A DNA stretch of 64,000 bases, taken from positions 16,430,001 to 16,494,000 of the forward strand of contig NC_091998.1 in assembly GCF_044704955.1 (NCBI RefSeq). Reading direction: 5' to 3'. The notes below the pieces were generated by a model, which did not search any database, had not been told where the DNA came from, and was given only the letters and a program-made list of their open reading frames with translations. Below are positions 2,559-59,916 of this stretch, piece after piece; position 1 is the stretch's first letter; each line of letters begins with the position of its first letter. Origin of the DNA: Pristiophorus japonicus. Taxonomy: Eukaryota. A program made the position numbers and the translations under genes.

Positions 2559-3314
2559 GTACTTACCGCCTCTTTTTAGTGGAAGTAGTGGGCAGTGCTA
2601 CACCACTCAATATTACATGAAACGGCATTGGTCACATTATTTAAAGGGACCCTTCACCTGCAAGTACTCAGATCACGAAAATCGGTTTGCAATTCACCTA
2701 TTTGAATTTTTCAGACGTTTTTGATTGGAAATCACTGAATTTCTGCTTTAAACCTTTAAGACCATGGAGGGGCTGCACAGTGCTCAACATGGGAGTCAAA
2801 GAGCGGAAGTTGTGGCTCTGAAGAGGCCACACATAAGGTGGAGCTGCATGGTGGTCAACATGGCAGTCATCCTGGCCACTCTACAGTACCAGGCTTTTGA
2901 GATACCCTGAGTGTGGCATGTACTGAACGTGGTGTGGAGCAAAAGAACACATAATCCAACTGCTCCAACTGACTGAACTTCAATCATCGATCAACTGCAA
3001 AACAAGTGTGTCACCAGTGGTGCAAATCAACCTGCTTGCTCTGAATAATCACTCGGCGAATGGTACCCTTGTTATCACCTAATGACAGAGAGTTGACTTC
3101 AACTTGCTTAGTTTATACTGGGAGGCCAGACATTACCTGACAATGGGCCATAGAAGGTACAGAAGAGGTTGCAGCTACTTCACTCCCACATGCCTAAAAA
3201 AGACAACGTGGATGTTTTCTTTGCCAAGAACTCACATCTGCCAGCAACTGGGTTGAGTCGTTCCAAAACCCTTTTCACACAAGACTTTTGCATCTGAGAG
3301 AGTGAAAAGACATT

Positions 3315-6395: not shown

Positions 6396-9300
6396 TTACA
6401 AGGTGAGGCAGTCAGGAGCCTTTCTTTCCCTGGTGGACCGCCTCGGTACAAATGTCTGTTCTGGTGTGTTGGCTGTGCCCTCGCTGGGCTGGCGTGTTGT
6501 TGGCCCTGCAGGGCTGCTAGGTGAGCCTGGTCTTGCTGGCCTATTGGGTGTGATGGGTTTGATTTCCTGGTCCGGCGCGGTGTCGTTGATCCTTTCGGTG
6601 TGTGTTGTGGGCTCGAACAAGGTGGTGTCTGCTGTGGGTTGTGCAGGGCAGTCTGTGAACCGCAGTCTCATTTGGTCCAGGTGCTTTCTGCAAATTTGTA
6701 CATTGTCTAGTTTAACTACAAACACCCTATTCATTTCTTTAGCTATCACTGTGCCCGTGATCCACTTGGGACCATGTCCATAGTTTAGCACATACACATG
6801 GTCATTCGGGTCAATTTCCCGTGACACAGTGGCGCGACCATCGTTTACATTTTGTTGCTGCCGCCTGCTCTCTACCTGATCATGCAGGTTGGGGTAAACC
6901 AGCGAGAGTCTGGTTTTAAGTGTCCTTTTCATGAGTAGCTCAACAGGGGCACCCCTGTGAGCGAGTGGGGTCTCGTGCGGTAGCTGAGCTGTACTCGGGA
7001 CAGGCGGGTTTGGAGTGAGCCTTCTGTGACTCGTTTAAGGCTCCGTTTGATGGTTTGTACTGCCAGCTCTGCCTGCCCATTGGAGGCTGGTTTACATGGA
7101 GCCAAGGTGACATGTTTGATCCCATTGCTGGTCATGAATTCTTTAAATTCGGGACTGGTAAAACATGGCCCATTGTCACTGACCAGTATGTCAGGCAGGC
7201 CGTGGGTGGCAAACATGGCCCTCAGGCTTTCAATGGTGGTGGTGGCGGTGCTTCCTGACATTATTTCACATTCAATCCATTTTGAAAAAGCATCCACCAC
7301 CACCAGGTACATTTTACCAAGAAACGGGCCCGCATAGTCGACATGGTTCCTCGACCATGGTCTGGAGGGCCAGGACCACAAACTTAGTGGTGCCTCTCTG
7401 GGTGCGTTGCTCAACTGAGCAAATACGCTGCATTCAGAGTCGATACCAGGCCACCACACGTGGGATCTGGCTGTCGCTTTCATCATTACTATACCCGGGT
7501 GTGTGCTGTGGAGATCCGACATGAACGTCTCCCTGCCCTTTTTGGGTAGCACTACGCGGTTACCCCACAACAGGCAGTCTGCCTGAATGGACAGCTCGTC
7601 CTTTCGCCACTGGAACGGCTAGATTGGCTCTTGCATTTCAACGGAGATGCTGGCCCAGCTCACATGCAGTACACAGTTTTTTTTACTAGGGACAGCAGAG
7701 GATCTTGGCTGGTCTAAATCCTAATCTGGCGGGCCGTGACAGGTGATTTATCATTTTCAAACGCTTCCATGACCATCAACAAGTCTACGGTCTGCGCCAC
7801 CATCAACAAGTTTGCAGGCTGCGCCATTTCCACCCCCGTGGTGGGAAATGGTAGCCGACTGAGAGCATCCGCACAGTTCTCGGTGCCTGGCCTGTGGCGG
7901 ATGGTATACTTATACGCTGATAGCGCGAGTGCCCACCTTTGTATGCGGGCTGAGGCATTAGTATTTATCCCCTTGTTTTCAGAGAACAGGGATGTGAGGG
8001 GCTTGTGATTGGCCTCAAATTTGAGCTGGAAACCAAACAGGTACTGATGCATTTTCTTTACCCCGAACACACACGCTAATGTCTCTTTCTCAATCATGCT
8101 GTAGGCCCTCTCAGCCTTAGACAAGCTCCTGGAAGCATAGGCGACAGGTTGCAACTTCCCCGCAATTGAGGGAGTGCAGCGAAGGTTCACCAGACTGATT
8201 CCCGGGATGGCGGGACTGACCTATCAAGAAAGACTGGATCAACTGGGCTTGTATTCACTGGAGTTCAGAAGAATGAGAGGGGACCTCATAGAAACATATA
8301 AAATTCTGACGGGGTTAGACAGGTTAGATGCAGGAATGGGGTACTGAAGTTGAATGTTCAGCCATGAACTCATTGAATGGCGGTGCAGGCTAGAAGGGCC
8401 GAATGGCCTACTCCTGCACCTATTTTCTATGTTTCTATGTTTCTATGTTAGCTTGTTGTAATACACACCCGACTCCATTCGACGACGCGTCACATGCTAG
8501 AACAAGTCTTTTACACGGGTTATAGAATACAAGCAGCTTGTTGGAGCATAAAATGTTTCTGGCTTTCTTAAAAGCAATTACTTGTTTTTTTTCCCCATAC
8601 CCAGTTCTCACCTTTGCGCAATAACACATGTAGGGGCTTTAAAAGGGTGCTTAACCCCGGTAGGAAGTTACCAAAATAGTTGAGGAGTCCCAGGAACGAC
8701 CGCAGCTCCGTAATGTTCTGTGGCCTGGGCACGTTCCTGATAGCCTCTGTCTTGGCGTCTGTGGGCCGAATTCCGTCCGCCGCGATCTTTCTCCCCAAAA
8801 ACTCCACTTCTGTTGCCATGAAGACGCATTTCGACCTCTTCAGCCGCAGCCCTACACGATCCAGTCGCTGGAGGACCTCCTCTAGATTTTGTAGGTGCTC
8901 GACGGTGTCCTGACCCGTGACTAATATGAAAGATCACCGTGTGTGGTACCGACTTGAGTTGGCTCTCCATGTTTCTCTGGAAGATCGCTGCAACAGACCG
9001 AATTCCAAACAGGCATCTGTTGTAGATGAACAGTCCCTTGTGCGCGTTGATGCAGGTGAGGCCCTTCGAAGACTCCTCCAGCTCCTGCGTCATGTAGGCC
9101 GAAGTCAGGTCGAGCTTGGTGAATGTCTTGTCTCCTGCCAGCGTCGCAAATAGGTATTGATCCTGTAGCGAGAAACGATTAATAGTTACTTCATAATCAC
9201 TGCAAATCCTGACCGTGCCATCACTCTTGAGTACTGGAACAATCGGGCTGGCCCACTCGCTGAATTCCATTGGGGAGATGATGCCCTCGCGTTGCAGCCT

Positions 9301-9830
9301 GTCTAGCTCAATTTCCACTCTCTCCCTCATCATGTGAGGTACCACTCGGGCCTTGTGGTGAATGGGTCGTGCCTCTGGGACCAAGTGGATCAGCACCTTC
9401 ACCCCGGAAAAGTTTCCAATGCCTGGCTCAAAAAGGGAAGGAAATTTGTTCAGAACCTGGGTACATGAGGCCTCATCGACATGTGATAGCGCTCGGATAT
9501 CATCCCAGTTCCAGCGGATTTTGCCCAGCCAGCTCCTTCCAAGCTGTGTGGGGCCATCGCCCGGGACAATCCAGAGTGGCAGTTCGTGCACCGTGCCCTC
9601 GTAGGTGACCTTGACCATGGAGCTGCCCAGGACAGTGATAAGTTCTTTGGTGTACGTTCTCAGTTTCATGTGGATGGAGCTCAGGGCTGGTCTGAATGCC
9701 TTGTTGCACCACAGTCTCTCAAACATCTTTTTATTCATGATGGATTGGCTAGCGCCAGTGTCCAGTTCCATGGCTATGGGTAAGCCATTCAATTTTACGT
9801 TCAGCATTATAGGTGGACATTTCGTCAAAA
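6396..9830 (-). pseudogene. Gypsy pol (protease, RT, RNase H, integrase) broken by frameshifts and a CR1 insertion
   Basis: MELDTGASQS (protease); EWASPIVPVLKSDGTVRIC, KLDLTSAY and LRSFLGLLNYF (RT); LACDAS and VAYASRSLSKAERAYSMIEKE (RNase H); HPGIVMMK, HVDYAGPF, VSDNG and SNGQAE (integrase). Confidence 0.92.
8165..8448 (+). mobile_element. CR1 3' fragment inserted into the Gypsy RNase H region
   Basis: Matches the 36255-37446 CR1 (GAGGGAGTGCAGCGAAGGTTCACCAGACTG...) and ends in TTTCTATG repeats; splits the peptide CVLQQANI|AGKLQPVAYAS. Confidence 0.9.
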
Positions 9831-10731
9831 ATGTGTGCACCCCATGTACTTCAGCATCTGCCTCCTCTCTCTGAGGCTCGAAATTGCTTTGATCCACCAT
9901 GGACCGATCTTCCTCTGCCATGTGGTGGTTAGCAGGTTTTGCAGAGCTTGCAGCTCGTTTGAAAGCTGTTGGAGGTGCCCCATTGTTCCACAGCTCTTGC
10001 AAACATACCCTTTGAAGCGGCATGAATAGGCTGAATGGAAGCCTCCACAAAGCCAACAAGGTGTGAATTGCCTTGCATTCATCCTTTGTTGGGGACTCTG
10101 AGTCATCTGGGTCACCTGAGGCCTGCTGGCAGTTGCAGACTCGTGGGTTCTGCCCTGTACATTTCTGCTCGCAAACACAGTTCCAATTAATTTATGAACA
10201 TTGCTAGCACTTGTGTGCTGAGAGATTTTTTTGGTGTTATCACTGGTGGACATAAACGCCTGTACTATCGCAATGGCCTTACTGTGGGTTGGTGTCTCTA
10301 CAGTCAAAAATTTTCGTAGGATTGTCTCGTAGCCAATGCCCAGTACAAAAAAGTCTCTGAGCATTTGCTCCAGGTAGCCATCAAACTCACATTGTCCTGC
10401 AAGTCGCCTTAGCTTGGCGATGTAGCTTGCCACTTCCTGACCTTCAGATTGCTGGCATGTGTAGAACCGATACCTCGCCATCAGGACGCTCTCCCTCGGG
10501 TTAAGATGCTCCCGAACCAGTGTACACAGCTCCTCATACGACTTATCTGTGGGTTTCACTGGAGCCAGAAGATTCTTCACGAGGCTGTAGGTCAGTGCCC
10601 CCCAGAATGTGAGGTGGACCGCTCTCCTTTTTCCTTCTCCAAGCACAAAGTACTGGTCTAGCCGTTCGACATAGGCTTCCCAGTCCTCACCCTCTGAGAA
10701 CTTCTCCAGGATGCCCACAGTTTGCCGCATC
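9825..10731 (-). pseudogene. Gypsy gag (frameshifted near C-terminus)
   Basis: ORF 9825-10793: EDWEAYVERLDQYF, ARYRFYTCQQSEGQEVASYIAKLRRLAGQCEF, Zn knuckles CWLCGGFH..C and CKSCGTMGHL. Confidence 0.9.
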
Positions 10732-11623
10732 TTTGCGTTAGATTCGTATTCTCGTCGCCAGTTATTGTGTTCCAAACACAGATGAGGCTGCACGCAGGGA
10801 GGTTAAAGTAATAGTGACCTCAGTCTTTGATAAGCCACTCCAGAGTGAGGAACAGGCCTTAGGGGCCGGCTTATATACAGTGCTCCCAAGGGATGCTGGG
10901 ATCCCTTGGGACTTCAGGGGATGAGCTCCCTGGTGGCGGAACATGGGAGTGCATGCTTTACAGATACACAACACAGAACTACATCTTGGAGGGCGTAAGA
11001 TGCCTGTGCTTGGATTTTTTTTAACTTGTGGTGGCCGTTGCACACCAGCCACCACACGGGCTTGACAGAGCTAGGTCTTGGTCCAATGGCAAGGATTACC
11101 CAAGACGACTGGAGACCAGCTCTGCTGCACGGACCGAGCGCGCACACATATCGCAGTGTGGGCTGGCCCGTGCTGCCCCTGGGCCCTCGCCTCTTCTGGG
11201 CCGCAGACTCTCGCCTCTCCTGGGCCCTGGTCATTTCCTTCTACAAACTCTTGCCGCTCCTGCTGTGCCTGCCCGCACTGCAATCAGCGACCTGACTTCG
11301 CAGCCGTTGCCCCCCTGCAATGTTATGTCGCCGCACGCTGCTCCCTCTGAAAGCCCCTGGCCTGCTGCATTGGTGGAGCAGAGCTGCTATGACATTGGAT
11401 TTAATATTTAACATTAGGGTGCCAGACATAGTGAGAAGATCAGATTTTAATACTATGAAGATAACCTAGGAAGCAGGAAATGGCAGATCATGAGAACATC
11501 TCGGGAGAAGCCGCTCGTGTTCCGCGAGACATTACAGGTTGATTCCACTTACAGCAGGCGTTTGCTGTGGTCAGCAGCAGTGTTGATGCCACTGGGGACT
11601 GTGTGCTTTCAAAGTGCGACATT

Positions 11624-49022: not shown

Positions 49023-51032
49023 TCAAGTGTGCAGATTTGTATTCTATGAATAAGGCCCACTGTACTAGAAAACAATTTGTAATATTACTGTAGTTGTTAG
49101 CTTATGGCATGGATCCTTTAAGAATGTGTACAATGCCACTTTGGAAACTAATGTGGCACCATGCTGGCGTTTAGGCCCTGTTATATATCAAAACTATCCA
49201 TTTATATTACTTGCACCAACAAGTCAGGTTGCTGTAAGTAATATAAGAATGATTCCTTGTTTCTTTTTATTTTATGAAAAATATAGAAATGTATACATTT
49301 GAATGAAACTCCTGTTCTTGCAATGCATGGCTTTATTCTTTAAGCAAAAAAAGCGTATGAAAGAAAACATTCTTAATCTTATTCCAAAAAAAATGGACAC
49401 AATTTGCCAAATAAATTAGTATGCATGAAGCCAGTTTTGGTTTAGGTTATAAATTATTCAAATAGTCACATATATGGAGGCAAATATAATATTTTAGAAA
49501 CTGGTGTGGCAGGACTGTGTCATAAATACAGAAATACCATATTAAGAGTATAGGTCAGATGAAATGCTGCCACATTGTGCAATCTATTATTGCATACACA
49601 GCTAGTGAGATCGTGTCATTTGCATCATAAAATGTCTAAGAAATGGTGGTTAATCAATAAGAGAATCAATATTGACTTACAATTTATTCACAAAAATCTG
49701 TAATGGTTGCACACTTTAAACCTATTAATTACTGAATATAGTGACTGTCTGACATACTATCATGAATTCGCATCACTAATAGTGACATATTTTTCATTAC
49801 AGTTAGTGGCCTCTGGTCTTTGAATGACCACAGCAGTGGCTCTGTCTAAAAGTAGCCTGTAATTACTTCAGGGGCTGTGGTGTTCCCCCTCACCCCCCAT
49901 TTCATGTAACTCTTAACTCTCATTCTATCATACAGACTGAAAATAATTAAATAAGGGCGAGGTATCAACAATTGCGAATTGAGTATTTGTAATGCAGCAT
50001 GTGTACTGACCTCTATCGCTTCTTTCATAATGGCCTATACACTCTAACTCGATTCATGGTGTCTGAAAACATATGAAATGCAGGAGTGAAACTGGGTTGT
50101 TGCTTCAATGTGTATTAATTGGTTTGAATATCCTTTTCCTCATTCCTGTTTGAATGGATCCTAGTGGATGTCAGCTGGTTCAAGATGGTTAGCCGATTCA
50201 GAGGTTAAACTGTGGGTACAGGGAGATCTACAATGTACTTGCTGAGTGAGAAAGATCTTATATGATTTAAGTTAACAAGCCACGTGAGTTATTAAAAGAA
50301 TGCTCCAGGTAAAACATGCACATCTCTATTTGTAAACCTTTCTCTGTTCTATGGAATTTCCTCATGCAAGACAAAAATTACATGTAATCTTCCTAGAACC
50401 CTGTATTATTTTACTTCCGGCTGCTTAATAGGCTTGTGTGTGGCCGGATGAATCTAAGTCCTGTGCTCGATGGCAGAGCGCTATTTCACTCTGTAACTGC
50501 GCTCAGTGACTCCTCCAAACTCAGCTTTGAACCAAATGCTGACAAAATATTATACGGGAACATAGCACTCCCCTTGGGTAATATTTTTCTCCCAAAGATT
50601 CCAACAATGCTGATTTTTGGACGGGTCAAATACTCCTCACAAAAATGTCTCAGAGAGCACTGGTCAGGAGATGTTGGACTTGGTATGCAGCAATGCCATA
50701 TTGTGTACCATTTCCAGGTACACAGCACTCACAAAATAAGCGTGGCATACGGCCTTCACATTTAGAATAAGCCTCTGAGAAGTATAATGAAAACCGACGA
50801 ATTTAAAGCCAAGTGCAATCTAATTGGGATGACTCGGAAGTCTGCATTGTGTGGGTCTTGCCTGAAGAAATCCTTCAAAGTGTCACACATCACTAGACCT
50901 ATAATAAGGATATTATTTACAACTGGGCACCAATGCGAACAATGGTGGAGGACTACTACACAAGTGTTAGCATAAGGTGAAGTGATCACTAGAGTGCTAA
51001 AATCCCCTAATTGTAATTCAAATTCCTTACTG

Positions 51033-53864
51033 CGCAGATAGCAGTTAACGGGTATGATGTTATTGGCATCACGGAGACATGGCTCCAGGGTGACCAAGGC
51101 TGGGAACTCAACATCCAGGGGTATTCAGCTTTTAGGAAGGATAGACAGAAAGGAAAAGGAGGCAGGGTGGCATTGCTGGTTAAAGAGGAAATTAATGCAA
51201 TAGTAAGGAGGGACATTAGCCTGGATGATGTGGAATTGGTATGGGTGGAGCTGCGGAATTCCAAAGGGCAGAAAACGCTAGTGGGAGTTGTGTACAGACC
51301 ACCAAACAGTTGTAGAGAGGTTGGGGACAGCATCAAACAAGAAATAAGGGATGTGTGCAATAAAGGTATAGCAGTTATCATGGGTGACTTTAATCTACAT
51401 ATAGATTGGGCTAACCAAACTGGTAGCAATGCGGTGGAGGAGGATTTCCTGGAGTGTATTAGGGATGGTTTTCTAGACCAATATGTTGAGGAACCAACTA
51501 GAGAGCTGGCCATCCTAGACTGGGTGATGAGTAATGAGAAGGGACTAATTAGCAATCTTGTTGTGCAAGGTCCCCTGGGGAAGAGTGACCATAATATGGC
51601 AGAATTCTTTATTAAGATGGAGAGTGACACAGTTAATTCGGAAACTAGGGTCCTGAACTTAAGGAAAGGTAACTTCGACGGTATGAGGCGTGGATTGGCT
51701 AGAATAGACTGGCAAAGGATACTTAAAGGGTTGACAGTGGCTAAGCAATGGCAAACATTTAAAGATCACATGGATGAACTTCAGCAATTGTACATCCCTG
51801 TCTGGAGTAAAAATAAAACGGGGAAGGTGGCTCAACCGTGGCTAACAAGGGAAATTAAGGTTAGTGTTAAAGCCAAGGAAGAGGCATATAATTTGGCTAG
51901 AAAAAGCAACAAACCTGAGGACTGGGAGAAATTTAGAATTCAACAGAGGAAGACTAAGGGTTTAATTAAGAGGGGGGAAATAGAGTACGAGAGGAAGCTT
52001 GCCGGGAACATAAAAATTGACTGCAAAAGCGTCTATAAATATGTGAAGAGAAAAAGATTAGTGAAGACAAATGTAGGTCCCTTGCAGTCGGATTCAGGTG
52101 AATTTATAATGGGGAATAAAGAAATGGCAGACCAATTGAAAAAATACTCCGGTTCTGTCTTCACAAAGGAAGACACAAATAACCCTCCAATTGTACTAGG
52201 GGACAGTAGGTCTAGTGAGAAGGAGGAACTGAAGGATATCCTTATTAGGTGGAAATTGTGTTAGGGCAATTGATGGGATTGAAGTCCGATAAATCCCCGG
52301 GGCCTGATAGTCTGCATCCCAGAGTACTTAAGGAAGTGGCCCTAGAAATAGTGGATGCATTGGTTATCATTTTCCAACAGTCAATCGACTCTGGATCAGT
52401 TCCTATGGACTGGAGGGTAGCTAATGTAACACCACTTTTTAAAAAAAGGAGGGAGAGAGAAAATGGGTAATTATAGACCGGTTAGCCTGACTTCAGTAGT
52501 GGGGAAAATGTTGGAATCAATCATTAAGGATGAAATAGCAGCGCATTTGGAAAGCAGTGACAGGATCGGACCAAGTCAACATGGATTTATGAAAGGGAAA
52601 ACATGCTTGATGAATCTTCTGGAATTTTTTGAGGATGTAACTAGCAGAGTGGACAAGGGAGAACCAGTGGATGTGGTGTATTTGGACTTTCAAAAGGCTT
52701 TTGACAAGGTCCCGCACAAGAGATTGGTGTGCAAAATCAAAGCGCATGGTATTGGGGGTAATGTACTGACGTGGATAGAGAACTGGTTGGCAGACAGGAT
52801 GCAGAGAGTCGGGATAAATGGGTCCTTTTCAGAATGGCAGGCACTGACTAGTGGAGTGCCACAGGGCTCAGTGCTGGAACCCCAGCTCTTTACAATATGC
52901 ATTAACAATTTAGATGAAGGAATTGAGTGTAATATCTCCAAGTTTGCGGATGACACTAAACTGGGTGGCGGTGTGAGCTGCGAGGAGGACGCTAAGAGGC
53001 TGCAGGGTGACTTGGACAAGTTAGGTGAGTGGGCAAATCATGGCAGATGCAATATAATGTGGATGCAATATAAGGTTATCCATTTTGGGGGCAAAAACAC
53101 GAAGGCAGAATATTATCTGGATGGCGGCAGATTAGGAAAAGGGGAGGTGCAACGAGACTTGGGTGTCATGGTTGATCAGTCATTGAAAGTGGGCATGCAG
53201 GTACAGCAGGCGGTGAAGGCGGCAAATGGTATGTTGGCCTTCATAGCTAGGGGATTTGAGTATAGGAGCAGGGAAGTCTTACTTCAGTTGTACAGGGTCT
53301 TGGTGAGGCCTTACCTGGAATATTGTGTACAGTTTTGGTCTCCTAATCTGAGGAAGGACGTTCTTGCTATTGAGGGAGTGCAGCGAAGGTTCACCAGACT
53401 GATTCCAGGGATGGTTGGACTGACATATGAGGAGAGACTGGATCAACTGGGCCTTTATTCACTGGAGTTTAGAAGGATGAGAGGGGATCTCATAGAAACG
53501 TATACGATTCTGACGGGACTGGACAGGTTAGATGCGGGAAGAATGTTCCCGATATTGGGGAAGTCCAGAACCAGGGGACTTGGTCTTAGGATAAGGGGTA
53601 GGCCATTTAGGACTGAGATGAGGAGAAACTTCTTCACTCAGAGAGTTGTTAACCTATGGAATTCCCTGCCGCAGAGAGTTGTTGATGCCAGTTCATTGGA
53701 TATATTCAAGAGGGAGTTAGATATGGCCCTTACGGCTAAGGGGATCAAGGGGTATGGAGAGAAAGCAGGAAAGGGGTACTGAGGGAATGATCAGCCATGA
53801 TCTTATTGAAAGACGGTGCAGGCTCGCATGGCCTATTCCTGCACCTATTTTCTATGTTTCTATG
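51033..53864 (+). mobile_element. CR1 LINE: near-complete ORF2 (APE endonuclease plus RT), 5'-truncated and frameshifted
   Basis: GITETWL, VGVVYRPP, MGDFN and GKSDHN (APE); NYRPVSLTS, YLDFQKAFDKV and KFADDTK (RT); tail TTTCTATG repeats; possible TSD TTACTG (51027-51032, 53865-53870). Confidence 0.96.
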
Positions 53865-54168
53865 TTACTGGAATGAGGTTCCATACCCAGTACAATGATC
53901 TCTGAATATTATTGAAAATTAATTACGGCTTCAAAATCAATTCAGATGAAATGCACATTCTCTATTCTAATGATATTTTCATAGCAGGTCCTCAGGGCAG
54001 GACGCTTGGACTGAAGTATGGAGAGAACACAGCCCCGATTGGGAAAGCAATGTTCTTGGTGAACAAACTGAGAGGTGGGTTGAGTTACACTAGTGTGCTG
54101 GACAAATGCTGCCTTGATAGTAAGCTCAGAGGAAACTCATCAGAATTGTATTTTTCAATGTGTAGAAC

Positions 54169-54552
54169 TCGCTTCTCGGCCTTTTGGCTAAGATCTGCAT
54201 AACTAACCTGACCAGCCACCATGACCTCCGGGTGGTTTCTCCCTGGTCAGGAAGGTATATGCTTACATTTTTGTAAACAGGAGGTGGGTGGGATGGCTTG
54301 ACCCATCCACCTCCACGGAGGTGTGTGGGGGACCTGACCCATCCACCTCCATGGCACGAACCTGGTATTGCAGTACTTCCAGGAACGGTGCAGTGGCTCT
54401 AGGCCTTTTGGCTAAGAGCATTGGCGCAGAGTGATCCTTGACTGGTGCAGGGTGACCTCTGGCGTTTGACAAAGAATTGGAACGATTGGAACGATTGGAC
54501 ACGAATAAATAAATAAATAAATAAATAAATAAATTAAAAAAATTTAAAAAAA
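54169..54552 (+). mobile_element. snRNA-derived chimeric SINE (U2/U1; SINEU-like), copy 1
   Basis: Starts TCGCTTCTCGGCCTTTTGGCTAAGATC (U2 nt 2-28); U1-like segment; ATTTTTG; U2 3' end ACCTGGTATTGCAGTACTTCCAGGAACGGTGCA; (AATA)n/A tail; 12-bp TSD AATGTGTAGAAC (54157-54168, 54553-54564). Confidence 0.9.
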
Positions 54553-54756
54553 AATGTGTAGAACAAAAATTGTTATGTATAATAATCCCCCAAAAACCTC
54601 ACTTGACAGAAAACAAAATAAGCACAATGAGTTTTTTTTACGTTTGAAGATCAGGTGATAATATTGTGAAAACCTTTACTCTGATTTTCGTCAGCACCAG
54701 TTACGTGCTGAAAGAAATCTCATGTTTCTTATATAACAGGAACAGTTTAAAGAGCA

Positions 54757-55989
54757 TCATCATCATCGGCAGTCCCTCGGAATCGAGGAAGACTTGCTTT
54801 CACTCTTAGCATGAGTTCTTAGGTGGCTGTACAGTCCAATACGTGACCCACAGTCTCTGTCACAGGTGGGACAGACAGTGGTTGAAGGGAAGGGTAGGCG
54901 GGGAGCCTGGCATGCTCCTTCCGCTGCCTGTGCTTGATTTCTGCACGTTCTCGGCGACGATACTCGAGGAGCTCAGCGCCCTCCCGGATGCACTTCCCCC
55001 ACGTAGGACGGTTTTTGGACAGCGACTCCCAGGTGTCAGTGGGGATGTTGCACTTTATCAGGGAGGCTTTGAGGATGTCCTTGTAACGTTCCCTCTGCCC
55101 ACCTTTGGCTCATTTGCCGTGGACAAGTTCCGAGTAGAGCGCTTGCTTTGGGAGTCTCGTATCTGGCATGTGAATTATGTGGCCTGCCCAGCGGAGCTGA
55201 TCAAGTGTGGTCAGTGCTTCAATGCTGGGAATGTTGGCCTGGACGAGGACATTAATGTTGGTGTGTCTGTCCTCCCAGGGGATTTGTAGGATCTTGCGGC
55301 GACATCGTTGGTGGTATTTCTCCAACGACTTGAGGTGTCTATTGTACATGGTCCATGCCTCTGAGCTACACAGGAGAGCGGGTATTACTACGGCCCTGTA
55401 CACCATGAACTTGGTGACAGTTTTGAGGGCCTGGTCTTCAAACATTTTTTTCCTCAGTCGGCTGAAGGCTGCACTGGAGGCGGTGTTGGATCTCGTTGTC
55501 AATGCCTGCTCTTGTTGATAGGACGCTCCCGAGATAAGGGAAGTGATCCACATTGTCCAGGGCCGTGCCGTCTGGGGGAGTGCTGTGCGACGAGGACAGG
55601 CTGGAGGAGGATCTTTGTCTTACTAATGTTTAGCGTAAGGCCCATGTTTTCATACGCCCTGGTAAATACGTTGGCTATGTCCTGGAGTTTAGCCTCTGTG
55701 TGTGCACAGACGCAGTCAGCGTCCGCGTACTGTAGCTCAACGACAGAGGTTGGAGTGGTCTTGGATCTGGCCTGGTGACGGCAAAGGTTGAACAGATTCC
55801 CACTGGTTCTGTAGTTAAGTTCCACTCCAGCGGGGAGCTTGTCAACTGTGAGGTGGAGCATGGCAGCGAGGAAGATTGAGAAGAGGGTTGGGGCGATGAC
55901 GCAGTCCTGCTTGACCCCGGTCTGGACATGGATTGGGTCTGTGATGGATCTGTTGGAAAGGATCACGGCCTGCATGTCGTCGTGGAGCA
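54757..55989 (-). mobile_element. 5'-truncated RTE LINE (RT C-terminal half), decayed
   Basis: TGVKQDCVIAPTLFSIF, VELQYADAD, QLRWAGHIIHMPDTRLPKQ; (ATG)n tail; 10-bp TSD TTAAAGAGCA (54747-54756, 55990-55999). Confidence 0.95.
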
Positions 55990-56454
55990 TTAAAGAGCAA
56001 TACATTGGGCAACCCCCTCATGCCCACCGCAAGGCCACAAAAGTCATCTTCGAAGCTTCCACTAAGGCTGCACAATTCACGTAGTCTGAGATCTCTCACG
56101 AGGGCATGAGTTTGAGAAGGAACAGATCGTTAAGTATCATTCATCAGCTGGGAAGGGGGAGCTTGCAGCAAGGCTGGACTGCGAAGATTACGTACTATAG
56201 TGTAAAATAATTAAACATGATGATCTTTTAAATACGGCAATTGTTACTGTCAGATTTAAATTCATCATAAATTATTTTCTGATCCACATGTTTTTATTTT
56301 TCTGGCTCAATAGTAGCACATACGTAGCAGAGGAAGCAATATATTCCATATTTAATATCCATGGGAAAGATTCAGTAACACTCACCATCAACCCCTTGCT
56401 GAGTCCCAAGGCTTTTGGAAAGGTAGTAAAAGGAAGATTTGTGCATTCTGATTT

Positions 56455-57955
56455 AAAACTTGACTTTAAAACACACATTATCTATTTTCTGTTGGCAAGC
56501 CACTAAAAAGTATTGGTCTCCAAAATAATTGTAGCTTAGGACATTCATGAGATGAACCAAATACTTTTTGGACCAAAAATATGTTTAGAACATTGCAAAT
56601 TGATTTGGTTACCATCTGAAATGATTTCGCTGGAGAACAACAGTTCAGAGGTTACCAGATGAATAATGCACAAAAAGAACATTATTTTACACTGCATCTG
56701 GTACTTGTACCAAGTAAGGATGAGCAAGATCAGACTGCCAGATTAAGAACATCAAAAACCTCTGCATAAGGAAAGCCCTGTCTGAACATTTTTAGCTGCA
56801 TTCTTCAATCCTCTCTGCAAATTTTACAAACTCTGTCTCATTCTCAGACAGATGGAATGTGTACTGGAAACCTCAGTATGGTTCCATGCAGCAAACTATC
56901 GGAACCACAGTACAGAGTGAGTGCAGGCCTATTAGGGCTGTGTAACTGAAGGCCTCAACACATATGCATAGTAACAGCAGAAGTTTGTATTAAGCTACAC
57001 TTAAAAGTGTATTATGAAACTAGTCCTTAAAACACACATTCGTGACCTCTGTAGCGAGAAGTTTACCTTTTTTGACCTTCAATTGATTTCAGCGCTATGT
57101 AATGGGAATTCTCAGCAAAGGGCTGCAGTGACGTCAACAAGCTGTCTAAGCAGCCAGCCAATCACATTGCAGAATTCTCACAAACAGGAAACAAGGAGCT
57201 ACTTTTATCCAGACTTTTAAAATAAAATATTAGAGAGTGAAATAAAGATTGGAACTCTCGCATGGGGATAAGGTAGAAGCTGAAATAGCACGACCAAACT
57301 TTTAAAGTTTTATAAAAATTACAATTTTTATCATAATGGAGAAATGTAACAACTTCAGAAATATAAAAATGAGTTTTACAGGGCCAGAATGTTTGTCTAT
57401 CAGTCAATATGCTGTTAAACCCCCAATTACACCTATTCCAACAAGACTTAACATTTAATGGGGTATTTATCAGCAATTACTGCAGAAAAGCCCAAGTTTT
57501 TGTCGGTTTCACAGATTATACTGTTTGCCGACTATGGGGGTGAGGGTTGTATCCACAGCGCAGCCAGTGTCAGAGCAGTGACCGACTGACCACAACTTCA
57601 GAATTTCCGCGTTTAGATGCACATGTGCTAAATACTGATGATACAATCAGTTTCAGAGGGATAATGACGGTGAACGCTGGTATTTCGGTGTCATTAACCA
57701 TCGCAAATTCCAAGCCATTATCTATTTTCTGCTGGTAACCCATTAAAATGCATTTGTTTCCTAAAGAATTGTAGCCTCGAACATTCATGAGATGAAACAA
57801 TTACTGTTTGTATTTTTGTATAAGAACATTGCAAATTGATTTGGTTACCATCTGAAATGATTACACTGGGGAACAGATGAATAACTGCACTAAAAGAACA
57901 TTATTTTGCACTATATCTGGTACTTGACCCAGTGAAGCTGAGAAAGATCAGACCG
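56455..57955. repeat. Local diverged duplication of ~280 bp (56455-56740; second copy 57015-57040 plus 57717-57955)
   Basis: Shared colinear blocks TTAAAACACACATT, ATCTATTTTCTG, ACATTCATGAGATGAA, AGAACATTGCAAATTGATTTGGTTACCATCTGAAATGATT, AAAAGAACATTATTTT and AAGATCAGAC. Confidence 0.85.
57041..57716. mobile_element. MITE-like insertion splitting the second duplicate
   Basis: Absent from the first duplicate; bounded by ATT/ATT; right end GCAAATTCCAAGCC resembles the ends of the 11624 and 15341 elements; left TIR not seen. Confidence 0.55.
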
Positions 57956-58306
57956 TCGAATAGTTACCCAGATTTACCTTTTTCTTCTTTCTCTTCAAAC
58001 CATCTCACCACCACCAATCCATTGGTTACGAAACATTAGACAAAGGTGTAGTAAGACACGAGATTGTACTTATAATTCAGCATACCCCGAACCTTTCAAT
58101 CTCAACCCGGTTGCTGTGGGGAAGTGAGAACTGGAAAGTGCTGTTCCACAGAAAGAGTAAAAGAAACAGAAACTGGAAAAAACACCACCCCCAATCCACT
58201 TTTGCAGCTTAAGCAGCTATACAGCATCACAGACAGAAGCCTGAGTGGGGTCTTGGCCAGAGACGGTCCAGAACATGGGAGAAATAGTAAATAATTTGGA
58301 AGTTAC

Positions 58307-58984
58307 AGGGGCCGAAGCACTCCGGGGGTTGCTAACGGGGTGCAAAACTGCTTTTGCCCGGAGTGAGCGCTACCAGCTCACGCAAAATTGCGCGAGAGTT
58401 AGTGGAGACATGAACACAATAGCGTCCCGGGCCACCGTGCCTCCGTGCCTCCAGCAATGACGCCATCATCATGCACAGCGACCCCTTTCCGCCCCATGGC
58501 GGAAATTGCCTCGCGCCCCAGGAGGTTGCTGCAAACCAGGCCGACCTCCACTCCCGGGTTGAAAGGTAAAGGGGAGGTGCACGGCGCCACACGCTGCCAT
58601 TTTTTTCTTCGGGAAACTCACTTGTTGGCCCCGTGCTCCATCATTGTCTGTTTGGGTGCGGAGCAATGGCCACGGCACCACACAGCCCTGGTGGCCCAGT
58701 GGAGGATATCAAAGGACCTGCAGAGCTCACAACGGCCCTCCCCTTTAACGGAAGGGGAGAGGCGTTGAAACGCATCAGTGCTTCATGGAGAAGCCGATCC
58801 TGTCCATGTAGTACCCCAGACACTGCCCTAACAGGAAGTGCAGTACGCGACACTGCGCTCCACTTCCTGCGAGGGGCGGGAACTTGAATTTCGCGGTTGG
58901 GGCGCGACTTCCACGTTGGGCGCAGTAAGTCCCGCCCTGAATCAGTTACCACCCCCAAACGGGGCGTTATCGAATTTCACAGCC
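58307..58984. mobile_element. GC/CpG-rich segment, probable non-autonomous DNA transposon
   Basis: Sharp compositional boundaries; ends GGGGCCGAA / GAATTTCACAGCC are only loosely inverted. Confidence 0.35.
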
Positions 58985-59009
58985 ACAATGTTTACATTTT
59001 TCCTTCTTT

Positions 59010-59368
59010 TTTTTCTTCTTTTTTTTTTATTCGTTGCCAATTTTTCCAATTCTTTGTCAAATCACAAACGCCAGAGGTCACCTTGCACACATCAAGGATC
59101 ACTCTGCGCCAATGCTCTTAGCCAAAAGGCCTAGAGCCACTGCACCGTTCCTGGAAGTACTGCAATACCAGGTTCGTGCCATGGAGGTGGATGGGTCAGG
59201 CCCCCCACACACCTCCGTGGAGGTGGATGGGTCAAGCCACCCCACCCACCTCCTATTTCCAAAAAGCATAGGAGAAACACCTTCCTGATCCAGGGAGAAC
59301 CACGTTGGGGTCATGGTTACTCCCCTGTCAGGTCAGTTACGCATGATCTTAGCCAAAAGGCCGACCCG
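59010..59368 (-). mobile_element. snRNA-derived chimeric SINE (U2/U1; SINEU-like), copy 2
   Basis: Minus strand reads TCGGCCTTTTGGCTAAGATC-ATGCG-TAACTGACCTGACAGGGGAGTAACCATGA (U1-like), then the same body as copy 1 and an A-rich tail; 15-bp TSD CATTTTTCCTTCTTT (58995-59009, 59369-59383). Confidence 0.9.
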
Positions 59369-59916
59369 CATTTTTCCTTCTTTATGCACAGCATTAGTCC
59401 TCAGCCATAACTAACAAATAACCAACTTCTCCATAGCTGCCAGTTCTAATGCTAATCAACTAACGACTCACCATTGTTAGCACGGTTAAATACAGTGCAA
59501 TGTTCCATGTAAATATAAATACGTAACTGAGAGCCAAAAACCACAGGCGAGCACATTTAAGTGTCTATTATCTGTTGGTGATCAAAACCATCAGCACACT
59601 ACAGTGATAGGAAACAGGTGTCAAGTTTTACACAGTTCAGTCAGTTTCCCAGCTTTCCTCAAAACTGGAAGGGTTAGAACTTTGGGTGCAGCAGAGAAAA
59701 TGCTCTTCTCTGGGAAACTGTCATATCTAACTTCAAAATGCAAAAAGTGAAAAATCACAACATTTGAAGCTGTCAAACATATAATTTAAGACTAGCACCG
59801 ACAAGGTTTGTGGGAAAGGGGTGGGCAGGGAAAGTTCCTTGTTATGGGGACTTGATATTCTACTTCAGTAGAAATGGTTCTAATTTTGACTCAAAGCCAG
59901 ACAAAAGATTTCAGCT

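Follow-up and report, generated by a model that had tools for sequence, protein, structure and literature searches.

In the sawshark Pristiophorus japonicus, a short interspersed nuclear element (SINE) built from U2 and U1 small nuclear RNA (snRNA) sequences sits at nucleotide (nt) 38 of U2 genes with its own head at the transcription start (+1), where it is probably transcribed from the U2 promoter and copied by the enzymes of a Keno-type long interspersed nuclear element (LINE). Two copies of the family lie in the stretch of 64,000 nucleotides analysed here (the window; NCBI RefSeq assembly GCF_044704955.1, contig NC_091998.1, positions 16,430,001 to 16,494,000 of the forward strand, with window positions counted from its first letter): copy 1 at 54169–54552 on the plus strand and copy 2 at 59010–59368 on the minus strand, each with an A-rich tail. 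If the SINE takes its promoter from U2 and its enzymes from a U2-targeting LINE, as is likely, this would explain how copies without a promoter of their own are produced. The evidence comprises the structure of the family, the insertion sites it shares with the LINE, array units in which the SINE joins the U2 upstream region without a seam, and dispersed copies identical to array units.

We found 58 places in the genome where poly(A) is followed by true U2 sequence from nt 38; the 57 that were classed are 29 LINE copies, 21 copies of the window's family (SINE A) and seven copies of a sister family, B. Seventeen units of the type-1 U2 tandem array consist, in order, of the U2 upstream region, the SINE starting at +1, poly(A), U2 nt 38–191 and the normal 3' flank. 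The type-1 upstream region was joined directly to the SINE in 17 of 18 matches, the eighteenth being an intact U2 variant, and the 240 bp upstream showed the intact-unit sequence without change in 13 of 15 SINE units, as they did in 123 of 126 U2 units. The SINE occupies 5 of 29 units on contig C1832, 4 of 30 on C1868 and none on C1003; these counts are soft because the arrays are incompletely assembled (they contain an N run and break off at contig ends) and redundancy is possible among some small contigs. Locus L129 holds the SINE at nt 38 of a type-2 U2 gene, under that gene's own upstream region, and locus L127 has the nt-38 junction in another type-2 body with foreign sequence upstream. 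Further separate insertions at nt 38 lie behind a LINE (L150) and in dispersed copies of B or of a second sister family, C (L104, L240, L247). The type-1 U2 gene is a 764-bp GC-rich tandem unit (L031–L038, L117–L120), and the edge of its array (G000:C19, ~69.62–69.72 Mb) is near-saturated by full-length LINEs and SINE units, some of the LINE copies standing in tandem at the same nick. The type-2 gene is an 18–21 kb unit that carries, after U2, a LINE 3' end, pieces of family B and a second U2 nt 38–191 (L121, L122, L126).

Marks private to the array are carried by 29 copies genome-wide, 18 of them array units and 11 dispersed. Eight of the 11 dispersed copies match an array unit base for base along their length (six match an older variant and two a derived one, to which 16 of the 18 units belong), and several have target-site duplications (TSDs) and pure A-tails of up to ~75 bases.

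The partner LINE is 5.7 kb long, starts with a head of U2 nt 1–38, and encodes two proteins: a zinc-knuckle ORF1 (open reading frame 1) and an ORF2 of 1,147 residues with endonuclease (PF03372), reverse transcriptase (PF00078) and zf-RVT (PF13966) domains. Both frames were open in all five array copies examined. The endonuclease is of the AP (apurinic/apyrimidinic) type, its nearest solved structures being the L1 endonuclease, and the closest named relatives of ORF1 are from sharks and rays (8 of 12 matches; best 82% and 64%), in keeping with a cartilaginous-fish host. In the U2 array of contig C1003 the LINE lies at nt 38 within a 16-bp duplication corresponding to U2 nt 38–53. The LINE thus has an AP-type endonuclease with a reverse transcriptase and inserts after U2 nt 37, as does Keno, an AP-endonuclease element (PMC4640811) whose published site is after U2 nt 37, i.e. 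at nt 38, with the same 3' flank (PMC6136364; here and below, literature is cited from the accessible parts of each source). None of 78 ORF2 protein matches was a named Keno element, and the label "Keno-type" refers to insertion site and domains. At least 2,103 LINE 3' ends occur genome-wide, so that the LINE is only weakly site-specific.

Additional junctions tie the two elements together. At locus L015 the LINE 3' end abuts two SINE copies, and a LINE 3' end followed by a short duplication and a U2 head was found at 18 places (15 after merging four duplicates), where at most ~1 would be expected by chance on generous counts; two of the junctions are 30-base LINE ends flanked by the same duplication as the adjoining SINEs. 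Judged by these shared insertion sites only, the SINE is likely mobilised by the Tx1/Keno-type LINE, which supports the proposal of an earlier note on the window that an L1/Tx1-type LINE was responsible. An older relative of the LINE (~88%) with a head of U1 nt 1–37 in place of U2 lies at L222:9556-10000 (G000:C2321).

In the window, copy 1 is flanked by a 12-bp TSD and copy 2 by a 15-bp TSD, confirming that they are two independent insertions, each with its own duplication and A-rich tail. They are 90% identical (296/329) and belong to different subfamilies. Mapped onto the U2 and U1 genes of the same genome, their features are as follows.

54157..54168, plus strand: 5' TSD of copy 1, 12 bp
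54169..54195, plus strand: U2 head of copy 1 (U2 nt 2–28, stem-loop I), 27/27 to host U2
54201..54253, plus strand: decayed U1 5' module of copy 1 (~U1 nt 3–57), refolded as a long hairpin; significant via copy 2's subfamily only
54267..54273, plus strand: Sm-site-like U-run of copy 1 (U2 nt 99–105); 5'-truncated family copies start just 3' of it
54280..54314, plus strand: first stem-loop III-derived hairpin of copy 1 (U2 nt 99–147, 71%; 13-bp stem)
54317..54350, plus strand: second stem-loop III-derived hairpin of copy 1, an internal duplication; single-hairpin variants exist
54352..54393, plus strand: U2 stem-loop IV module of copy 1 (U2 nt 153–186, 32/34)
54398..54420, plus strand: second U2 head of copy 1 (U2 nt 7–29, 21/23); reaches U2 nt 38 in family C
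54421..54505, plus strand: family-specific tail of copy 1, its end being the mark of a 50-copy young sub-lineage
54506..54552, plus strand: A-rich tail of copy 1
54553..54564, plus strand: 3' TSD of copy 1
58995..59009, minus strand: 3' TSD of copy 2, 15 bp
59010..59029, minus strand: A-rich tail of copy 2
59030..59112, minus strand: family-specific tail of copy 2, A2 type
59113..59135, minus strand: second U2 head of copy 2 (U2 nt 7–29, 21/23)
59140..59268, minus strand: Sm-like site, two stem-loop III hairpins and stem-loop IV of copy 2 (U2 nt 97–147, 74%; nt 109–186, 76%)
59284..59337, minus strand: U1 5' module of copy 2 (U1 nt 3–57), 45/55, E 1e-10
59344..59364, minus strand: U2 head of copy 2 (U2 nt 9–29), 21/21, preceded by 4 added bases at the 5' end (59365–59368)
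59369..59383, minus strand: 5' TSD of copy 2

The module order on the host genes is U2 nt 2–28, U1 nt 3–57, U2 nt 97–147, U2 nt 109–186, U2 nt 7–29 and tail; over U2 nt 109–186 as a whole copy 1 is 75% identical. The U1 module claimed in the earlier note stands for copy 2, whose score against host U1 was reached by 0 of 2000 shuffles, and does not stand for copy 1 by itself (700 of 2000), where the module is recognised because copy 2's subfamily shows the match. Of the Rfam models, U2 scored 52.9 bits (gathering cut-off 46) and 39.4 bits on the two elements, and U1 only 21.1 bits (E 0.35). Matches to the prion-pseudoknot and mir-214 models fell under the cut-off and were taken as chance. No tRNA, 5S or 7SL Rfam family was found on either copy, and the element is not a classical polymerase III SINE in that sense. 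The RNA folds much more strongly than shuffled sequence (z −4.7 to −7.3), with the U1 hairpin and both stem-loop III copies wholly paired despite their drifted sequence. It keeps structural elements of U2; the part of U2 that pairs with the branch point has been replaced, and the bases of U1 that pair with the 5' splice site are altered.

Copy 1 is bracketed by a LINE with open endonuclease and reverse transcriptase frames and a decayed reverse-transcriptase-bearing LINE (51017–53850, plus strand, and 54755–56020, minus strand), and further left in the window is a long-terminal-repeat-type gag-protease-reverse transcriptase remnant (8668–10802, minus strand). The 18 window frames that were scanned, of 54 listed, matched no host-gene domain.

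That the two copies belong to a multi-copy retroposon family rather than being strays, as the earlier note had held, is borne out. A 24-mer from the tail has 3,505 exact matches in the genome (reversed control, 0), so that the copy number is at least this high; the 40 best-matching places are 98–100% identical to copy 1, and copy 1's own sub-lineage has 50 copies. The modules are common to the family's structure across the 111 units extracted. Family A, which includes both window copies, is young and looks still active. The family has the features of the SINEU class (a 5' head derived from U1 and U2, a length <500 bp, poly(A), and retrotransposition with target alterations), and its shared internal structure sets it apart from a sum of chimeric retrocopies and from a LINE 3' end. 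It is not a SIDE, both ends of which come from an autonomous LINE, since the U2 head alone is common to SINE and LINE.

In family A, U1 nt 3–57 replaces U2 nt 29–96 and stem-loop III is duplicated; variants with a single hairpin occur, and one subfamily bears the partner LINE's variant of the U2 head. The two simpler sister families, B and C, occur in the same arrays. Family C, with 172 tail matches, is a near-complete type-1 U2 lacking 9 bases, followed by 5 bases of the U2 3' flank, U2 nt 7–38 and a 45-base tail; family B is a more diverged form. From this nesting and from the position of A upstream of B or C in 6 of 6 mixed tandem arrays, we infer an assembly order C to B to A. The composite is accordingly best read as built stepwise from a U2 gene rather than by free shuffling of modules: the U2 and U1 modules of the earlier note do map onto host genes, and its word "shuffled" gives way to a series of edits.

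All 30 of the family C tail loci fetched were U2-based, and no robust similarity links the family tail to the partner LINE, which disposes of the alternative that the element is simply the 3' untranslated region (UTR) of a longer LINE. An origin of the tail from the LINE 3' end was rejected, the match being reached by 65–352 of 400 shuffles; an origin from the LINE 5'UTR was not accepted, the match being reached by 6 of 400 shuffles for B but by 75 and 243 of 400 for the primitive C. The tails contain a short ATTGG-containing unit (window 54470–54505), repeated more often in younger subfamilies than in B or C, which we take to resemble an inverted CCAAT box; words similar to these repeats occur in the 5'UTR of the LINE.

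A script detected TSDs of 6–23 bp (median 14 bp) at 39 of 58 loci, and several of the 19 loci without one are tandem arrays. The earlier note's AT-rich targets were not found: the 100 bp upstream of 30 copies had a mean GC content of 0.46, against 0.43 for the window. We also rejected strong sequence specificity at dispersed sites, which show a weak A-T-(C) preference only, its A being doubtful because it is confounded with the poly(A). U1 gene clusters showed no enrichment, none of the 16 10-kb stretches looked at there containing a SINE copy. Eight of 30 unselected copies sit in tandem arrays that re-use one nick, and since the preference at dispersed sites is weak, sequence does not account for this re-use. 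The first tail was the longer one in 19 of all 30 tandem arrays and the shorter one in 10 (p 0.14), and in the 21 arrays starting with SINE A, a subset picked post hoc, it was longer in 18 versus 3; tail lengths lean toward sequential growth on the 5' side, the overall test being non-significant, and on the same lengths origin of the arrays in a single event is not favoured.

The 30 unselected copies comprise 18 full-length and 12 truncated ones, and 10 of the 12 truncated ones start between −2 and +11 relative to where the Sm-like site ends. With this interval fixed in advance, 6 of 14 independent truncated copies of copy 1's young sub-lineage fell inside it (p 3e-5), as did 3 of 6 truncated copies of family C, one of the C starts being read by eye. 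The cluster fits a bound Sm ring that blocks reverse transcriptase and fits equally a shorter RNA that had been trimmed back to the hairpin base; we give the two about even chances. The Sm-like site of A2 lacks the usual leading purine.

Among ~70 SINE insertions examined, three lie inside core histone sequences (L191:1740-2033; L207, minus strand; L024, minus strand), read as H4, H2B and H2A, two of them confirmed as histone folds by Pfam; the SINE is possibly enriched there, the comparison being without a measured baseline. The same position of other repeats was struck independently at different loci (L015/L039, L020/L030, L022/L062/L067/L269), and SINE copies also lie within older copies away from nt 38 (L111, minus strand, ~2990–3260; L014).

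We propose that RNA polymerase II would start at +1 of an occupied U2 unit and read the A-tract into U2 nt 38–191, the transcript stopping at the gene's normal 3' signal to give an RNA of ~520–570 nt. The A-tract would be encoded rather than added, as the upstream polyadenylation word present in the LINE is missing from the SINE. The LINE ORF2 protein would then nick DNA and prime on the internal A-tract, and the U2 sequence behind the tract could make homing more precise by pairing with the target; co-transcription can strengthen targeting (Kojima 2015, PMC4494074). At a U2 gene the U2 head of the complementary DNA would pair with nt 1–37 of the gene, giving a seamless junction, rebuilding +1 and creating a new master, and elsewhere the insertion would leave a 6–23 bp duplication and a promoterless copy. 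Turnover of array units would replace masters and so yield successive subfamilies.

Several points weigh against this proposal. The case for transcription from the U2 promoter is drawn from sequence. The earlier note had asked how such an element is transcribed at all; the SINE seated at U2 +1 is a concrete candidate answer, short of an array master for copy 1's sub-lineage or for A2: none of the 50 copies of that sub-lineage in the assembly lies within an array or has a U2 upstream region before it, no A2 copy was found under a promoter, and the L127 junction has foreign sequence upstream. The master locus that the note had suggested seeking has candidates in the +1 units, though no proximal element is recognisable there, as the type-1 upstream region does not clearly resemble the proximal element of U1 or of type-2 genes; the case for its activity is therefore its position before a uniform array of intact genes. 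Recognition by the LINE is argued from shared sites only, because the tail has no robust LINE match, and dispersed sites offer no more than their weak preference. Identity between array and dispersed copies is compatible with either direction of copying, and a dispersed master could feed both. The incomplete arrays and soft unit counts belong here too. A more far-reaching version, in which the element parasitises the U2 pathway at both ends, taking the array promoter and making an RNA on a U2 chassis that has lost both splice-signal readers, carries Sm proteins as an snRNP does and meets the Keno enzyme there, with the Sm ring leaving its footprint in the 5' ends and concerted evolution of the array picking the active subfamily, we offer tentatively, as doubtful.

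A possible objection to the borrowed U2 promoter is that the dispersed copies are the masters, transcribed by read-through from promoters nearby or from a tandem copy lying upstream, a route proposed for crocodilian SINEU, and that the array copies are by-products of Keno targeting. The 50-copy sub-lineage and A2, which have no array master, would fit this, as would the 8 of 30 unselected copies in tandem arrays, the ~200 bp of other sequence that separate the head from the likely duplication at L050, and the 5' extensions of SINEU-2 (Kojima 2015, PMC4494074). Read-through RNAs should however give 5' transductions, whereas full-length copies begin at nt 1–23 without a common 5' extension, and what 55 loci share upstream is only neighbouring repeats or duplicated segments; the derived array variant is moreover matched exactly by dispersed copies. 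We regard dispersed masters as unlikely.

An internal promoter, either the inverted CCAAT-like words of the tail (as we presume them to be) or a polymerase III promoter, is improbable. The youngest subfamilies are richer in tail repeats than C or B and the LINE 5'UTR has similar words, but the tail lies ~250 nt downstream of the start, Rfam gives no tRNA, 5S or 7SL head, and the first 110 nt contain runs of 4–5 T, which tend to halt polymerase III. It is more improbable still that the element is not primarily selfish and represents a U2 variant RNA, functional or domesticated, from which LINE enzymes scattered processed pseudogenes. Its strong fold (z −4.7 to −7.3), the Sm-like site, the retention of stem-loops III and IV, hairpins rebuilt from new sequence and spread inside the array are what such an RNA might show; yet pairing with the branch point and with the 5' splice site are the established roles of the very U2 part that is replaced and the U1 bases that are changed, subfamilies turn over rapidly, and the array units break U2 genes as the LINE does.

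The borrowed U2 promoter, which we prefer, can be set beside other elements of RNA-gene arrays. Like Keno, the partner LINE has an endonuclease and reverse transcriptase and the published U2 site and 3' flank (PMC4640811, PMC6136364, PMC4494074); unlike Keno as described in those sources, it is dispersed (at least 2,103 3' ends), has a U2 head that restores +1, and carries non-autonomous passengers. Utopia uses the same U2 site and is autonomous with a restriction-like endonuclease, in contrast to the AP-type endonuclease here (PMC4640811). The R2 SIDEs of Drosophila are internal deletions of R2/R1 whose ribozyme frees the 5' end, and their expression is driven by the promoter of the host gene (Eickbush and Eickbush 2012, PMC3414825). 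As with these, the shark element is non-autonomous and occupies its partner's site in a tandem RNA-gene array, with use of the host promoter likely; unlike them it is built from snRNAs and lies mostly outside the array, and it would need no 5' cleavage, the gene's first bases being replaced by its head.

The closest parallel is with SINEU-1/2/3 of crocodilians, for which, in the accessible parts of the report, transcription was left open and no relative was found outside crocodilians (Kojima 2015, PMC4494074). The shark family appears to work like SINEU, a likeness of class features that does not imply descent from it. The two have in common U1/U2 heads, a length <500 bp, poly(A), repeated additions or swaps of heads, tandem copies sandwiching a duplication, a tail not common to any LINE, and a Tx1 partner inferred via shared targets, with partner LINEs that are U1- or U2-headed (PMC4494074). 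The shark family differs in its cartilaginous-fish host, its preferred site (U2 nt 38, not Mariner-N4), its copies at +1 of U2 genes, its second internal U2 head and its duplicated stem-loop III (PMC4494074). We found no printed report of a shark SINEU or a U2-array master in the accessible literature, our search of which did not extend to Repbase, Dfam or the original Keno paper, so that an unpublished database entry is possible. What sets this case apart is a group of candidate masters seated at U2 +1, together with dispersed progeny that match them. The snRNA-headed SINE class is thereby extended beyond crocodilians, with a stepwise series from U2 gene to composite SINE on display and with a natural small RNA that a LINE enzyme apparently inserts into a multicopy RNA gene at a single, exact site. 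Candidate source loci can now be named for SINEs whose promoterless transcription was left open in the crocodilian work (PMC4494074), and as they lie beside intact copies of a U2-targeting LINE, the question of transcription becomes directly testable.

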